Shown one piece after another: positions 7,501 to 15,560 of a stretch of 64,000 nt of DNA; the stretch's first letter is position 1, and the number at the start of each line of letters is the position of its first letter. The notes under the pieces are model-generated. The model was not told the origin of the DNA and ran no database searches. It saw only the letters and a program-made list of their open reading frames with translations. Position numbers and translations under genes: made by a program. The DNA lies in the sequence record MK295204; one strand, written 5' to 3'. The stretch comes from Shigella phage vB_SdyM_006.

Positions 7501-8751
7501 ATGACCAATAAGATTCAAAAATTATTGCGCGAATCAAGTACAACAGCCAGTTCATCTAATGGACGTCCTGATCTTGTTGGGTTAACACGCGCAACACATG
7601 ATTTAATTTTTACAGATTTAATTGCAATACAGAATACAAATCAGCCAGAAGCGACTCTTTATGGTGTCAAATATTTAAATGACAATAAAGATATGAGTTT
7701 TATGACACCAGCTACATATTCTGGTGCTATAAAATCAAGAGAAAATATCGAAGAACTTGACCCATCTAAATCATATTCTAAAGATGATATGTTTAAATTT
7801 GAAGAAGTGGTTTATAAAGTCGTTAAAGATAATCCATTTACAGATTTGACGTCATTACCAAAAAATGAAGCTTTAGGCCAAGCAATTATAGATGGTTCTA
7901 TTAGATTTATGTCTGAAGCGGCATTAACTGGGCATTTTGAAAAGAAAGACGTAGAAATAGCAGAAGCTTCTGTCAGATTAGATCGTTGGAATATTCCTGT
8001 AAGAACAAGAAAAATTAAAACAGAGCTCACAGTTGAATTTGCTCAAGACTTAAATTCAAACCAGTTTGAAGCAGGTGCCGTAATTGATGACATGTTAGCT
8101 ACTATTTTAGCTGAAGATGTTAATAAAGACGTTATCCAAAAAATTATGACTGTTTCTAGTCGATATAAGGTTAAAGGAATTTCTGATAAAGGAATGTTAG
8201 ATTTAACCAAAACGGATGTTGCTCCTGAACAAGGACGTACTTTATATCGTTATATTTGTGAAATGAATGCGTCTATCGAAAGAAATACAACTTATGATGG
8301 GACATATGTTTTAGCTAGTTCAAGATGTGCTGCTATTTTGTCTGCATCAGGTTGGATGGATATTAATCCTGATTATCCTTTAGCCGCTGGCACACTTAAA
8401 AATGGCTTACCTGTTTATTCTGACCCTTGGTCTCCTGTTGACTATGTAGTTGTAGGAACTAAACAAAACCTTGGTGAGCTAGAACATGTAGGTTCTTTAT
8501 TCTATGCACCTTATATTGATTTTGATGGCGCAGGTGCTTATAAATTAGTTGTCGATCCAGATAGTTTACAACCTAAACTTGCTTTAATGGTCCGATATGG
8601 GTTATCAATTAATCCATATACAGTCATTGAAGTAGACGAAACACCTCAAAAAGAATCTATGTTAGTTCAAGGTGATGATTGGGACAATTTAGTTGGTAAG
8701 TCTAAAATGTCATATATTTTAGGTGTTCAATTACCTAAACTTATAGAATAA
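7501..8751 (+). CDS. 24: capsid vertex protein (gp23 paralogue)
   Basis: 416 aa, directly downstream of gp23; C-terminal pattern RYGLSINPY echoes the gp23 fold. Confidence 0.88.
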   Translation: MTNKIQKLLRESSTTASSSNGRPDLVGLTRATHDLIFTDLIAIQNTNQPEATLYGVKYLNDNKDMSFMTPATYSGAIKSRENIEELDPSKSYSKDDMFKFEEVVYKVVKDNPFTDLTSLPKNEALGQAIIDGSIRFMSEAALTGHFEKKDVEIAEASVRLDRWNIPVRTRKIKTELTVEFAQDLNSNQFEAGAVIDDMLATILAEDVNKDVIQKIMTVSSRYKVKGISDKGMLDLTKTDVAPEQGRTLYRYICEMNASIERNTTYDGTYVLASSRCAAILSASGWMDINPDYPLAAGTLKNGLPVYSDPWSPVDYVVVGTKQNLGELEHVGSLFYAPYIDFDGAGAYKLVVDPDSLQPKLALMVRYGLSINPYTVIEVDETPQKESMLVQGDDWDNLVGKSKMSYILGVQLPKLIE

Positions 8752-8765
8752 TTTATTTAATTTCC

Positions 8766-8806
8766 GGTAATTTATTACCTTTTTTGGGAACTTCGGTTCC
8801 CTTTTT
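8766..8806 (+). terminator. tandem terminators after gene 24
   Basis: GGTAA-TTTA-TTACC + TTTTTT, then GGGAAC-TTCG-GTTCCC + TTTTT. Confidence 0.75.
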
Positions 8807-8807
8807 A

Positions 8808-9371
8808 TTAGAAAAAATCATCTAATGTAAACTCTTTATATCCTATCATTTCTTTGAATTCGCACATCACTATTGGGTTATATAAATTATAAGTCTTTAT
8901 CCCTAAATAACGTGCTAGATAAACAGCTGTTCTTGTCCCTCCAGAAACATTCCCATATTTATCCTCAGGTGCCCAAAATATAACTGAATCAACAGGATTT
9001 TCTAAAGTAGGTGTTAATATTTGCATACAATTTCTACATTGAAGATGTTTAACAGTTTTAGAAACACTGTCTAATTTAGGATAAAATCTTCTTATAATAT
9101 TAGCGGCTTTTTCTTGGATTTCGTCATTAAAGTCTGTAAATATATGAACACCATTCCCAGAATAGTGATTATTGAACCCCTGGTGAGGAATAATAACACA
9201 TTTATTTTCAGATGAGTATTTCTTCATAAACAAATAATCACTCCCAGGCGCTCCTCCTGATGTTCCTAGCACTCCTAAATTAGAAATATATTCTCCACCA
9301 CTTATTAAAATATTAGATAAACGACTTGGTATTTTTCTTGACCCTATTAAAGCTACAGAATTTTTAACCAT
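8808..9371 (-). CDS. SLOG/DprA-like Rossmann-fold protein
   Basis: N-terminal pattern LIGSRKIPS...GTSGGAPGSD and C-terminal GGTRTAVYLARYLGIKTYNL resemble the DprA/LOG/YpsA (SLOG) glycine-rich nucleotide-binding loops; motif-level call only. Confidence 0.45.
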   Translation of the reverse strand: MVKNSVALIGSRKIPSRLSNILISGGEYISNLGVLGTSGGAPGSDYLFMKKYSSENKCVIIPHQGFNNHYSGNGVHIFTDFNDEIQEKAANIIRRFYPKLDSVSKTVKHLQCRNCMQILTPTLENPVDSVIFWAPEDKYGNVSGGTRTAVYLARYLGIKTYNLYNPIVMCEFKEMIGYKEFTLDDFF

Positions 9372-9380
9372 GCTAACCTC

Positions 9381-9400
9381 AAAAAGGACCCGAAGGTCCT
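9381..9400 (-). terminator. hairpin terminator 14 nt upstream of SLOG-like gene start
   Basis: AGGACC-CGAA-GGTCCT with T-run on minus strand. Confidence 0.55.
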
Positions 9401-9405
9401 TTAAT

Positions 9406-9561
9406 TTATTGTAAAGCTAAAATTAAACCCACAATAATAAACCATAACACAAACCCAATCCATAATGGTGATAACACCCATAGCCAAGACCAAGCAATGA
9501 CACCAACTAGTTTTAAAACAATAAACACAATACCTAGTACACCCAAAAATCCAATTTTCAT
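9406..9561 (-). CDS. small hydrophobic protein, 51 aa, likely membrane-embedded
   Basis: My own translation: MKIGFLGVLGIVFIVLKLVGVIAWSWLWVLSPLWIGFVLWFIIVGLILALQ; start 2 nt after upstream gene stop; followed by a hairpin terminator; below the ORF-track length cutoff. Confidence 0.35.
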   Translation of the reverse strand: MKIGFLGVLGIVFIVLKLVGVIAWSWLWVLSPLWIGFVLWFIIVGLILALQ

Positions 9562-9562
9562 A

Positions 9563-9808
9563 TTACCAACCTGTTATTTGTATTATATTAGAATCAAATT
9601 GGGTTCTTTTAACAGTTAACCCTTCGTTTTGTAATTTTGTAATAACTTTCTCTTGGACTCGGTATGAGATTTCACCTAGAGTCCAAGTTAAACTATCATA
9701 CCCATGTTTAGATTTAAGCATTAATCGCTTTGCAATATCATTAAACACCTGTTTAGATTCAAGCTCAACTAAGCTATCTTTAGAATCTTTTAATTTATCA
9801 ATAAACAT
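9563..9808 (-). CDS. hypothetical protein
   Basis: 81 aa ORF tightly packed downstream of rnlB. Confidence 0.4.
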   Translation of the reverse strand: MFIDKLKDSKDSLVELESKQVFNDIAKRLMLKSKHGYDSLTWTLGEISYRVQEKVITKLQNEGLTVKRTQFDSNIIQITGW

Positions 9809-9815
9809 AATAAAC

Positions 9816-10820
9816 CTATTTTGTAATTAAATTGACCCAATCTTTTCGAATGAATTCTTGTATTTCTTTTTGAATAGATTTCTTGATTAATGCTGGGTCA
9901 TCGTAATCAAGAATATCATGCCCGTCTTTTAACATATCTTTTAAAACATCCTGCATCATTAGACCTTGAACTTTGCCAAAATCTTTTGAAGATATTTCGC
10001 CAACATGGCTAATCACATTAGATAAACGTTGTGCAGTGATATATGATGTAGAAAAATTAACCAGTTCTTGGTCGTCATTTGATAATTCTGGTGTAGGTCT
10101 AATTGTTTTTACTTTACCAGTTTCTTTGAACTTAGCATTTTTACATTTAAAAATTACACGGCTTTTATTATTGAACTGTGTTGGAGTAATAGGTTTAAGA
10201 ACATAACCTTCTGCAATATTTTCTGAACCTTCTTTTTGAGGACCAAATACGTGGGCATTTGCAGCCGGAATACCATGTTCTTTTACTATTGCATTAAATT
10301 CTGGGATTAAAGAATCAAATGAACGCTCTAAATTACTTAATTCATCAAAGTCACCAGTTAAAATAACAGGGCAGATTTTAAGATTTGTTTTAGAAGATAA
10401 CATTCTTAAAAATAAAGCATCTACTAAATCACCATTAATTAAAATATCAAATACCCAGAAATCTTTTTCTTCGTAATCTACTTCTCGTTGAATACCAGGG
10501 CCTGCATATTCGCCAAAGACTGTTAAAAGTTCTAAGTCAGGCATTGATTCTTTAACAGTATTAAACATGTCAAGAATGTTTTGTTTATAACGCTTTAAGA
10601 TTAATTCGTATCCAAAAAATGCTTCAGATTCACCAATAAGATTAGTTCGTTTTGCACAAACAACATCTACACCATCACAAATAAAACTAAAATTAGTCCC
10701 ATGTATTTTTTCTTGGGCAATCCAAGGAATACCTGGTGCTGTTTTTCCTTCAAAAAAGGCCTTTTCTACTAATTTAGTGTTATCAATATTTTCAATAGAA
10801 TCATATTTAATAAATTGCAT
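9816..10820 (-). CDS. rnlB: RNA ligase 2
   Basis: 334 aa; nucleotidyltransferase lysine motif KIHGTN, plus blocks GYVLKP and KCKN-KF and GKVQGLMMQDVL matching T4 Rnl2. Confidence 0.9.
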   Translation of the reverse strand: MQFIKYDSIENIDNTKLVEKAFFEGKTAPGIPWIAQEKIHGTNFSFICDGVDVVCAKRTNLIGESEAFFGYELILKRYKQNILDMFNTVKESMPDLELLTVFGEYAGPGIQREVDYEEKDFWVFDILINGDLVDALFLRMLSSKTNLKICPVILTGDFDELSNLERSFDSLIPEFNAIVKEHGIPAANAHVFGPQKEGSENIAEGYVLKPITPTQFNNKSRVIFKCKNAKFKETGKVKTIRPTPELSNDDQELVNFSTSYITAQRLSNVISHVGEISSKDFGKVQGLMMQDVLKDMLKDGHDILDYDDPALIKKSIQKEIQEFIRKDWVNLITK

Positions 10821-11156
10821 TTATACCTCAAACAATCGTATTTTAAGACTAGTTGTATATTTGATTTCTAAATTATAAACTTTACCACTATAAACAACAA
10901 GAATTTTATTTGGGTTTTCTTCACACCACATTATATTATCGTCATTAATAATGTTTAAAAATTCTAGCTCTGAATAACAAGCCCACGAGAATGATTTACT
11001 TAAAAACTCTTTTAAATCAAGCCAATCGGTTTCGTCACAAATAGCAGGACTCATAACAGCAAGTTTGTGGGTATATGTTTCTTTATCACACCAACGAGTA
11101 AAAAACACTTCACGTTTTTCTTCTAAAGGAATAACACCAGCAGTATACCAAGACAT
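10821..11156 (-). CDS. hypothetical protein (paralogue of next gene)
   Basis: C-terminal NKILVVYSGKVYNLEIKYT aligns with NSILVLYIGESTQLEVKFT of 11166..11450. Confidence 0.4.
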   Translation of the reverse strand: MSWYTAGVIPLEEKREVFFTRWCDKETYTHKLAVMSPAICDETDWLDLKEFLSKSFSWACYSELEFLNIINDDNIMWCEENPNKILVVYSGKVYNLEIKYTTSLKIRLFEV

Positions 11157-11165
11157 AATAATTCC

Positions 11166-11450
11166 TTATTTGATTGGGATGATTCTAAATTTGTATTCAC
11201 CGCCACGAGTAAATTTAACTTCTAACTGAGTTGATTCACCAATGTAAAGAACCAAAATTGAATTTTTATTAGAACGTAACCAGTCTTGATATTCTTCAAA
11301 AGACTTGCGTAAAGATGGGATGCTATTTTTATATCGGCCTAAAATAGTCCATGAGAATTCACCACTGCCCATCCATTTAGTGGAACGGTCATATTTTAAA
11401 AGGTTTTCAATATCAATATTTAACCATGTTTTAAAGTTTTCTTTAATCAT
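11166..11450 (-). CDS. hypothetical protein (paralogue of previous gene)
   Basis: 94 aa; shared C-terminal motif with 10821..11156. Confidence 0.4.
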   Translation of the reverse strand: MIKENFKTWLNIDIENLLKYDRSTKWMGSGEFSWTILGRYKNSIPSLRKSFEEYQDWLRSNKNSILVLYIGESTQLEVKFTRGGEYKFRIIPIK

Positions 11451-11650: not shown

Positions 11651-11831
11651 AATCTTTACAGATATCCAAGAGTTTTTTGTTTAAAGCTTCAACAAATTCT
11701 GTAGCTGAATCAGGGTATTCGTTAAATAAATAACACAAATACTCACTATGTATTTCATGGGCCACTTGAGAAACCATAGTCTTAAGTTCTTTATTCATAT
11801 AATCACCTCTCAATAATGTGTATTCTATCAT
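11625..11831 (-). CDS. hypothetical protein
   Basis: 68 aa ORF; overlaps both neighbours by about 26-29 nt, so the true start may be internal. Confidence 0.3.
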   Translation of the reverse strand: MIEYTLLRGDYMNKELKTMVSQVAHEIHSEYLCYLFNEYPDSATEFVEALNKKLLDICKDFEENNDKS

Positions 11832-12237
11832 CTAAAATATCATTAAGCATAGGACCAATGACATCCCAATTTAAGCCACCATTAGAACACCCTGGTTTAG
11901 GCAGGAGAACTCTTTTAAAATTGTTATTAGATACTATCTCCATTAATTCTAATGCACTCTTACGTATCAGGTCTTTATCAGACTTGTTATACCAATCATG
12001 TTTAGTAGGAAATGATATTAAATTAATGTTATTATATTTCGTAAGAATTCTGCATACATGGCCGTATTGGATTAAGGATTTAGCCATGATTAAGTCTAAA
12101 TTAGGAACCTTCAACGAAAAGAGACGGGCAATTCCGGCTCCCATAACAGCTCTTTTATTTTTCTTGATATTCATGTTTGTTGTAATGCAAATAGCATCAC
12201 AAGGGATATCAAGAATATTTCCAGATACTATTTTCAT
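11803..12237 (-). CDS. macro-domain protein (ADP-ribose binding/hydrolase fold)
   Basis: 144 aa; N-terminal GNILD-x4-DAICITTN and glycine loop AVMGAGIA, C-terminal LLPKPGCSNGGL, resemble macro-domain signature loops. Confidence 0.55.
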   Translation of the reverse strand: MKIVSGNILDIPCDAICITTNMNIKKNKRAVMGAGIARLFSLKVPNLDLIMAKSLIQYGHVCRILTKYNNINLISFPTKHDWYNKSDKDLIRKSALELMEIVSNNNFKRVLLPKPGCSNGGLNWDVIGPMLNDILDDRIHIIER

Positions 12238-14616: not shown

Positions 14617-14620
14617 AACA

Positions 14621-14645
14621 AAAATGGGACCGTAAGGTCCCATTT
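14621..14645. terminator. bidirectional terminator between plus-strand island gene and gene 54
   Basis: TGGGACC-GTAA-GGTCCCA flanked by A-run and T-run. Confidence 0.7.
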
Positions 14646-15560
14646 TCAAATTAATCTTGTTACAGCTCCTATTCCTCCTCCAGCACCACCTAATCTTGTT
14701 AAATTTCTTAATGAAGAGCTTAAAGAGTTTTCTTCTGAAATTGTATCTATGGCACCAATTGCTTTTGATTCTAACCAATCAAGAGCTGCTTGCCTACCGA
14801 CAGAACCTACCTGCATCACCCTGTATGCGAATGTAACATCAAAAACAGCAATAGTATTATTATCTTCATATGAAAGTTCAGGAGCACCTACCGACATAGG
14901 AACACACCCTGTGAACATGGCAACAGTATGTGGAAGACCGTTTCTATTGTGTAAATTAACCTGGATATCGGCTTCAACATCTATAGGTAAAGCACGTAGT
15001 CCTGTGATTGGGTCTTCAACTGAATTCACCCAATCTTGCATAGCTCGATAATTACTTGCTTCTGAATCCATCCTAAACGAAATTATCAACGGGTCATATT
15101 CTCTAGATAGAACTTTTATATTAGGTGAATTATGATTTTTATCCATCTCATAAGATAGTCTGTTTTCTGGTAATTTGACAGAATAAACCATTAACCCAGA
15201 TGTTGGAAATGCCATATTAAAGAAATCTAATAGATAAGTCCCTACTTCAAATTCTCCTAATAATGATTGAACCACACGATTAGACATGGCTCCTAAAAGA
15301 TATTTAGAAACACCAGATTTTCTCACTAGTTTTTGAGTACCAGCAACAACTAGACTTGATACTGCACTAGTTACATCATTTTGAGATATTCCAAGAAAAT
15401 CTGTATCTATAGGTAAATTGTTAAACAAAAAACCACCAAAATTATCTAAAAGCTCATTAGTTTTTGATGATGGGGCTGTGGCAAAAACAACACTAAACAT
15501 GTTTGTTCTTTGGAAGTCAAGATTGACAGCTTGGCTTTTAAATTCTTCTAATGTATACAT
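14646..15560 (-). CDS. 54: baseplate tail-tube junction protein
   Basis: 304 aa; last gene of the 51-27-28-29-48-54 hub series, matching T4 order and length (320 aa). Confidence 0.75.
   Translation of the reverse strand: MYTLEEFKSQAVNLDFQRTNMFSVVFATAPSSKTNELLDNFGGFLFNNLPIDTDFLGISQNDVTSAVSSLVVAGTQKLVRKSGVSKYLLGAMSNRVVQSLLGEFEVGTYLLDFFNMAFPTSGLMVYSVKLPENRLSYEMDKNHNSPNIKVLSREYDPLIISFRMDSEASNYRAMQDWVNSVEDPITGLRALPIDVEADIQVNLHNRNGLPHTVAMFTGCVPMSVGAPELSYEDNNTIAVFDVTFAYRVMQVGSVGRQAALDWLESKAIGAIDTISEENSLSSSLRNLTRLGGAGGGIGAVTRLI

Follow-up and report, generated by a model that had tools for sequence, protein, structure and literature searches.

The 51-codon gene at 9406-9561

The window analyzed here is a stretch of 64,000 nucleotides of Shigella phage vB_SdyM_006 (sequence record MK295204), which is 99.8% identical to Proteus phage phiP4-3 (Straboviridae, Bragavirus). 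On its minus strand, at 9406-9561, it carries an ATG-to-TAA open reading frame (ORF) of 51 codons (stop TAA at 9408-9406), whose product, MKIGFLGVLGIVFIVLKLVGVIAWSWLWVLSPLWIGFVLWFIIVGLILALQ, is a member of the family phrog_1374 and was modelled as a membrane hairpin. The peptide is almost entirely hydrophobic. Its grand average of hydropathy (GRAVY) of 2.09 was the highest among the 151 ORFs of at least 40 amino acids (aa) in the window, Trp makes up 5 of the 51 residues, and K2 and K17 are the only charged positions; the hydropathy profile displayed two hydrophobic peaks. A second copy (paralogue) of the gene was not found in the window. A first-pass annotation made from the sequence alone had already described this minus-strand ORF exactly as it stands, including its near-total hydrophobicity and its Trp-rich segments. 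The flanking genes that it named were likewise found, i.e. an 81-aa ORF following the gene for RNA ligase 2 (rnlB) on the upstream side and a DprA-like/SLOG gene on the downstream side.

The translation start region (9559-9572, minus strand) consists of a weak Shine-Dalgarno-like AGGT (9572-9569), the stop codon TAA of the 81-aa ORF (9565-9563), one spacer base (9562), and the ATG (9561-9559), in agreement with the earlier placement of the start 2 nt past the upstream stop. The junction GG(T/G)TGGTAATATG is conserved in the Bragavirus genomes SJ_PmiM and Pm5461, and the arrangement TAA-T-ATG is invariant in the three Bragavirus genomes compared. This layout would suit translational coupling of the 51-aa gene to the 81-aa ORF. 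Four bases beyond the stop codon, where a terminator had been proposed, lies a terminator-like hairpin, AAAGGACC-TTCG-GGTCCTTT (9402-9383), with a five-T run at 9385-9381. The corresponding RNA element on the minus strand, AAAGGACC-UUCG-GGUCCUUU plus U-run, covers 9381-9402 and resembles an intrinsic terminator (fold of -11.4 kcal/mol, z = -2.4). Its core, GGACCTTCGGGTCC, is invariant in the three genomes, and the T-run is followed without a gap by the ribosome-binding site of the SLOG gene, GAGG (9380-9377).

An identical protein is annotated in MG696114 as coding sequence phiP43_099 (AUM58457.1, "putative membrane protein") and in RefSeq NC_055737 as a hypothetical protein. The description of the ORF as unannotated was therefore wrong for GenBank and RefSeq, and true only of the ORF track used for the first-pass annotation. 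Annotated orthologues of 57 and 58 aa, SJ_141 in SJ_PmiM and Pm5461_159 in Pm5461, occupy the same slot, with the 81-aa ORF on one side and the DprA-like/SLOG gene on the other. Conservation of the frame in related phages had been suggested as a check, and the frame was indeed kept in the three Bragavirus genomes, all insertions and deletions being multiples of three; relatives were also present in hundreds of other phages. The ratio of nonsynonymous to synonymous substitution rates (dN/dS, Nei-Gojobori) among the Bragavirus genomes was 0.10-0.20 across the first 36-38 codons. For the C-terminal helix it was approximately 0.7-1.3, yet hydrophobicity was retained. Given the identical annotated coding sequence, the orthologues at the same position, the frame-preserving indels, and the low dN/dS of the first part, the 51-codon ORF is almost certainly a real gene. 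The gene and its family were already catalogued and are not new.

The contrary explanation, i.e. an ORF that arose by chance or a non-coding element (a terminator leader or a small RNA, for instance), could draw on the short length, the weak ribosome-binding site, and the many short ORFs of an AT-rich genome. It is refuted by the conservation pattern described above, by a match to the phrog_1374 profile at E = 4e-17, and by thousands of homologues, and its probability is next to negligible. As for a non-coding element, an Rfam scan of 8600-10000 returned no family at the locus, the lone sub-threshold chance match lying outside the ORF. The antisense strand of genes of this family often stays open, yielding spurious ORFs that are sometimes longer than the true gene (e.g. 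9497-9619 on the plus strand of the window, and at loci L039, L076, and others). Naive longest-ORF gene callers choose such antisense ORFs over phrog_1374-type genes.

The family phrog_1374 and the hairpin model

The match of the 51-aa protein to the phrog_1374 profile (62.8 bits) aligned residues 1-50 with profile positions 14-63 of 89. A tblastn search returned 541 GenBank phage records at E ≤ 1e-3 (862 at E ≤ 10), from phages of hosts including Klebsiella, Rheinheimera, Mycobacterium, Gordonia, Bacillus, Staphylococcus, Flavobacterium, Rhodococcus, and Stenotrophomonas. With a word-indexed search, 1,146 proteins were retrieved, and an exhaustive profile search yielded 12,860 cluster representatives at E ≤ 1e-3, 2,652 of them at E ≤ 1e-10. 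In IMG/VR, 536 loci carried a phrog_1374-type gene. Of two matches labelled as bacterial, one proved to lie in a prophage-like region and the other in a contig of a T7-like phage.

Conservation was analyzed using alignments of 43 and 117 members, and per-position entropy was calculated from 246 single-unit relatives. Residues 3-35 (codons at 9457-9555, minus strand) were almost fixed in both alignments, with the consensus IGFxGLLTIVFIVLKLxGVIAWSWLWVLSPLWI; the core motif of the family reads GFxGLLxIVFIxLKLxGxIxWSWxWVLxPLW. In the window protein, this core comprises helix 1 (IGFLGVLGIVFIVL), the invariant K17 at the end of that helix, the Trp-rich turn WSWLW, and the start of helix 2, VLSPLWI. 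Ten columns were invariant among the 117 sequences (L9, L16, L18, I22, W24, W26, W28, V29, P32, and W34) and nine further columns were at least 90% conserved, all of which are present in the window protein. The 33-residue core is 60-70% identical between phages of Proteus and of Mycobacterium, and the protein retains the same level of identity among phages of Proteus, Mycobacterium, Rhodococcus, and Staphylococcus. Codons 36-51 (9409-9456, minus strand), which encode the C-terminal part of helix 2, displayed an entropy of 2.2-3.3 bits per position; residues 36-50 are variable in sequence and hydrophobic throughout the family alignments. This pattern suggests that the C-terminal part of helix 2 serves as a membrane anchor of a generic kind.

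Members of phrog_1374, which include phiP43_099, SJ_141, Pm5461_159, KP34 gp25-type genes, and actinophage "membrane protein" genes, share the length class, the motif, and the hairpin with the window protein. Most of them carry a Ser/Gly-rich N-terminal tail and a basic C-terminal tail, whereas the window protein has neither. With 51 aa, against a family median of 67 and a minimum of 49, it is, as aligned, essentially the bare core of the family.

Among named protein families, the Pfam scan of the 51-aa protein returned only Tmemb_185A (PF10269), below threshold (12.9 bits, E = 0.092, gathering cut-off 23.1). Weak matches to the same model were obtained for all 43 relatives tested (best E = 2.5e-5). 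The best matches of the exhaustive profile search were proteins composed of 2-13 tandem units, and six of the tandem relatives (P0121, P0122, P0124, P0139, P0151, and P0153) exceeded the Tmemb_185A gathering threshold, the scores being 45, 78.6, 34.7, 30.5, 28.5, and 28.8 bits. These include P0122, a protein of 1,289 aa with 13 units, and P0121 (L015, 3126-4106), which has five units and is encoded on a bacterial chromosome contig beside a ribosomal-protein operon. A three-unit relative, P0123 (L017, 6001-6735), is encoded on a phage contig of approximately 98 kb that also carries Acb1 (about 2.7 kb away), NAMPT (about 6 kb away), PhoH, and ClpP.

Tmemb_185A comprises the eukaryotic TMEM185A/B proteins ("transmembrane fragile-X-F protein"), which share the repeated motif LKLxGxIxWSWWxVxxPLW with the window protein; some GenBank phage members of phrog_1374 already bear that label. 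The Pfam model spans 252 positions and several repeats, unlike the window protein, which consists of one unit only and scores below the threshold. Considering the weak matches in all 43 relatives together with the tandem relatives above threshold, the phage protein is, judged from sequence, one copy of the module of which TMEM185-type proteins contain several. Another family, TIGR04438/Pfam PF27910 ("small Trp-rich protein"), likewise uncharacterized, resembles the window protein in being small, Trp-rich, and two-helical. Its NCBIfam model TIGR04438 matched residues 7-42 with 15.3 bits (E = 0.016), short of the cut-off of 36 bits, and two of four other relatives tested gave no match at all; a faint PF27910 match was recorded for the tandem relative P0121.

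The AlphaFold2 monomer model, built on the 117-sequence alignment, had a predicted local distance difference test score (pLDDT) of 94, with helices at residues 5-18, 26-29, and 31-50 and a turn at 19-25. This hairpin and the two hydropathy peaks support the two-helix membrane protein that had been proposed from the sequence. Among the 246 single-unit relatives, the N-terminal tail carries on average 1.3 Lys/Arg residues per sequence, the C-terminal tail 2.5, and the turn 1.09, the count for the turn being essentially the invariant Lys alone. The linkers between the units of tandem relatives are also rich in Lys/Arg. According to the positive-inside rule, the basic tails as compared with the turn place the termini in the cytoplasm and the Trp-rich turn at the outer interface, with which the tandem linkers agree. 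The protein is thus very probably a helical hairpin with its N and C termini both cytoplasmic, as far as the model and the charge distribution can tell. A structure search against viral models returned family members only, none of them at E ≤ 1e-3.

Transcription unit, neighbouring genes, and contexts of relatives

The 51-aa gene ends a minus-strand cluster that includes RNA ligase 2, a DUF2774 protein, and a protein with a weak Macro-domain match. Sigma-70-like sites were found upstream on the minus strand at 14600-14573, 14184-14155, and 12698-12670, and the T4-type late-promoter motif TATAAATA was absent from the minus strand between 5.7 and 20.7 kb. The lack of the late motif and the sigma-70-like sites upstream speak for expression of early/middle type, and the gene is probably an early/middle accessory gene.

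Directly upstream, the 81-aa ORF (phrog_8208; 9563-9808, minus strand), whose stop codon abuts the start of the 51-aa gene, is preceded by rnlB (9816-10820, minus strand). The 81-aa ORF was found only in Proteus and Providencia T4-like phages, always directly after rnlB. It was rejected as an obligate partner of the membrane protein, given this narrow distribution and its presence without the membrane gene in Providencia phage PSTCR6. Two adjacent minus-strand ORFs directly upstream of rnlB, 10821-11156 (phrog_18468) and 11166-11450 (phrog_19888), match each other's family at approximately E = 2e-5 in their C-terminal parts and are likely tandem paralogues. Further upstream in the same operon, a 144-aa ORF (11803-12237, minus strand) scored 21.5 bits against the Macro domain PF01661 (cut-off 22) and may encode an ADP-ribose-processing protein.

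Downstream lies the DprA-like/SLOG gene (8808-9371, minus strand; phrog_768, E = 9e-57). Its protein has relatives in 1,397 phage records, and in several Straboviridae the position of the gene is fixed, in convergent orientation to the vertex gene 24. Other operon ends in the window are marked by GC-rich hairpins with four-base loops and T-runs, i.e. GGGAAC-TTCG-GTTCCC (8786-8801), located where gene 24 and the SLOG gene converge, and GGGACC-TTAC-GGTCCC (14619-14648).

In RB49 and a Jiaodavirus, too, the SLOG gene converges with gene 24 at this position, and the membrane gene is absent from both. The gene order in Providencia phage PSTCR6 is rnlB, an 86-aa homologue of the 81-aa ORF, then a gene at the SLOG position, again without the membrane gene. 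Because these three phages keep the SLOG position without it, the 51-aa gene is, on this comparison, an insertion specific to Bragavirus and adjoins the SLOG gene only incidentally. The first-pass annotation had named the ORF after its SLOG neighbour; the link that this implies was not borne out, as the SLOG neighbour is confined to Bragavirus among the family loci tested. A SLATT-like two-transmembrane effector working with the adjacent SLOG gene is consequently highly improbable. Apart from the position of the 51-aa gene immediately upstream of the SLOG gene, it is favored by a whole-protein SLATT_1 score of 28 bits (cut-off 26.3) for the five-unit relative P0121. That score is summed, with no single significant stretch, and no SLATT match was obtained for the window protein or any of 43 single-unit relatives. 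The SLOG gene was absent from every other family locus tested and occurs without the membrane gene in the three phages above, and in the window the terminator-like hairpin separates the two genes. Lacking profile support and conserved linkage, the SLATT/SLOG partnership was rejected.

To describe the genomic context of relatives, 80 of the 536 IMG/VR loci were sampled; overall, 89 loci were considered, forming 68 groups after dereplication. Family genes were located by profile search, and a Pfam census took in 300 neighbouring ORFs (at least 100 aa long and no more than 2.5 kb away) at approximately 48 loci. Annotated contexts (KP34-like RothG, IdentityCrisis, 4MG, Peregrin, and DLP6) consisted of runs of early or DNA-metabolism genes. 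Eight annotated contexts and the census together showed DNA methylases, SSB, helicases, exonucleases, and RNA ligases near the family gene. The census contained 11 DNA methylase matches (seven C5, two N6/N4, and two MT-A70), three matches each to AAA_25, RtcB, SSB, and HNH_3, and two each to DnaB, exonuclease, NT5C, RNA_ligase, YopX, and Amidase_2. Peptidoglycan hydrolases occurred within 2.5 kb at 4 of the approximately 48 loci, which is about the chance rate. Three neighbours of approximately 277 aa, in RothG, IdentityCrisis, and Subtercola, proved mutually unrelated. In three unrelated phages (L007 Peregrin, L006 4MG, and L017), genes of nicotinamide adenine dinucleotide (NAD) salvage were located within a few kb of the family gene; they encode NAPRT, phosphoribosyl pyrophosphate synthetase, a nicotinamide mononucleotide transporter, and NAMPT.

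An RNA-repair ligase (RtcB or Rnl) was found within 4 kb of the family gene at 12 of the 89 loci, corresponding to approximately 10 of the 68 dereplicated groups. RtcB lies directly upstream and co-oriented at L021 and L032, and 10 nt downstream and co-oriented at L071; Rnl lies 36 nt upstream and co-oriented at L096. At L088 the family gene stands between RtcB and Rnl with a ligase one gene away, at L022 RtcB is one gene away, at L090 Rnl is 1.5 kb away, and at L008 both Rnl and RtcB are 3-4 kb away. In the window (9406-10820), Rnl2 is located one gene upstream. The background in GenBank phage records was 1.4% for RtcB, 2.8% for Rnl2-like ligases, and 0.14% for the L096-type Rnl, and with random placement a ligase within 4 kb would be expected at well under 1% of loci. 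The ligase-bearing loci include several phage contigs that are unrelated to one another. We regard this proximity as a lead, not a finding.

A proposed membrane hairpin of early or middle infection

As an explanation of the locus overall, we favor, at somewhat better than even confidence, a genuine accessory gene for a membrane hairpin with an early/middle protective role. The gene would be the last cistron of a minus-strand unit of early/middle type, to which RNA ligase 2 also belongs and which terminates at the hairpin 9383-9402. Its product would insert into the cytoplasmic membrane of the host as a helical hairpin whose N and C termini both face the cytoplasm. Helix 1 (residues ~3-18) would end at the invariant Lys17, the Trp-rich turn WSWxW would lie at the outer membrane interface, and helix 2, kinked at Pro32, would cross the membrane back. 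The conserved helix 1, the turn, and the start of helix 2 would then form the functional surface, and the remainder would serve as a generic anchor. Since the same module is repeated in tandem in cellular Tmemb_185A-type proteins, the protein may act inside the bilayer, by packing against its own copies or against some component of the membrane that all bacteria share. In this way it would condition or protect the membrane of the infected cell during early/middle infection, as an accessory or counter-defence factor and not as a trigger of lysis. Taken by itself, the protective or counter-defence role is a tentative proposal of rather low probability. It counts on Rnl2 and the sub-threshold Macro match in the operon, on the RtcB or Rnl genes near members of the family, and on Acb1 and NAMPT near the three-unit relative.

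Several results weigh against this explanation. A profile search of PDB sequences found no relatives and no solved structures, the full-text literature searched with family names, motifs, and PHROG, Pfam, and TIGR identifiers yielded no functional data on the phage family, and the PADLOC defence models gave no match. No neighbouring family recurred in more than about 6 of the 68 dereplicated groups, so that guilt by association is weak. The promoter-like sites were not commoner than in shuffled sequence, and the promoter and terminator calls are consensus matches. An AlphaFold2 model of a linked tetramer (four copies fused through Gly/Ser linkers and modelled with a matching alignment) reached a pLDDT of only 40 and a predicted template modelling score (pTM) of 0.23. 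This failed model lends no support to self-association, which the tandem-repeat relatives suggest. In the reverse direction, none of eight spread-sampled RtcB loci carried a family gene, a comparison that is underpowered at approximately 0.6 expected; this result also speaks against a partnership with RNA ligases. Finally, the very high conservation across phyla could fit a membrane-perforating protein such as a holin equally well; holin families, too, cross host phyla by acting on the membrane itself.

Lysis timing had been among the roles suggested, in generic terms, for a small membrane protein of this kind, next to superinfection exclusion and defence inhibition, and a holin, pinholin, or antiholin would indeed be a two-transmembrane protein with cytoplasmic termini that accumulates in the membrane and times lysis. 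From general knowledge of class II holins and pinholins (e.g. S21 of phage 21), the size is alike, and so would be the two-transmembrane hairpin with cytoplasmic termini, with which the hairpin model and the charge distribution agree; helix 1 is rich in Gly (G4, G7, and G10), and many relatives have a basic C-terminal tail, which the window version lacks. Weak matches to Phage_holin_3_6 were obtained for 20 of 43 relatives (best E = 0.002), but these are below the Pfam threshold and look compositional. Unlike class II holins, the window gene has no lysis-cassette context, no late-promoter motif in its transcription unit, and no significant sequence match. In none of the annotated contexts examined did an endolysin or spanin gene adjoin the family gene, which forms part of the DNA-metabolism block in KP34-like and T7-like genomes, and the hydrolases found in the census are no more than expected given that every phage has one. 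With early and DNA-metabolism genes as the usual neighbours, the genomic context disfavors a role in lysis timing, and a holin is quite unlikely. A superinfection-exclusion or immunity protein like T4 Imm, i.e. an early inner-membrane protein blocking the DNA entry of later phages, agrees with the early/middle-type operon, as well as with the small two-helix protein and its accessory, patchy distribution. The likeness to Imm, also a small early inner-membrane protein of a T4-like phage, is one of description. Exclusion proteins are normally lineage-specific and fast-evolving, whereas phrog_1374 is conserved across phyla, with 60-70% identity between phages that have unrelated injection machineries and envelopes. 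The tandem relatives in bacterial chromosomes and eukaryotes point to a general membrane module instead, and we consider exclusion fairly unlikely.

The ligase neighbours could also mean that the protein works with RNA ligases (Rnl2 here, RtcB or Rnl elsewhere), contributing the membrane part to a module for RNA repair or counter-defence. The excess of ligase loci over random placement argues for such a partnership, as do the RtcB and RNA_ligase matches of the census, which at five are second only to the DNA methylases. Most members, however, have no ligase nearby (KP34-like and rV5-like phages, cluster A mycobacteriophages, and DLP6). Co-localization is inflated by the tendency of accessory early genes to share genome regions, and the four actinophage-like loci are probably one lineage. 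The Bragavirus ligase is at the ancestral T4-type position, with the membrane gene inserted beside it, and there is no mechanistic rationale for a ligase partner that is purely membrane-embedded. A dedicated ligase partner is therefore unlikely. Broader, and in our view equally unlikely, is the idea that phrog_1374 is a universal membrane-embedded counter-defence or repair-associated module, recruited repeatedly beside RNA-repair ligases and counter-defence-type genes; the company cited for it consists of the borderline Macro-domain match, NAD salvage, and Acb1. If this were true, phrog_1374 would have a target in the membrane that Gram-negative, Gram-positive, and mycolic-acid bacteria share, and might neutralize abortive-infection effectors that act on membranes or connect RNA repair with the membrane.

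Returning to the proposed membrane hairpin of early or middle infection, the gene is of little importance for this window alone, but phrog_1374 is a very large and unusually well conserved family. The eukaryotic TMEM185 proteins that share its unit are themselves functionally uncharacterized. A highly constrained bilayer protein that phages carry whatever the envelope type probably engages a fundamental feature of the bacterial membrane, and a function found for any tractable member could be assigned to thousands of hypothetical proteins.

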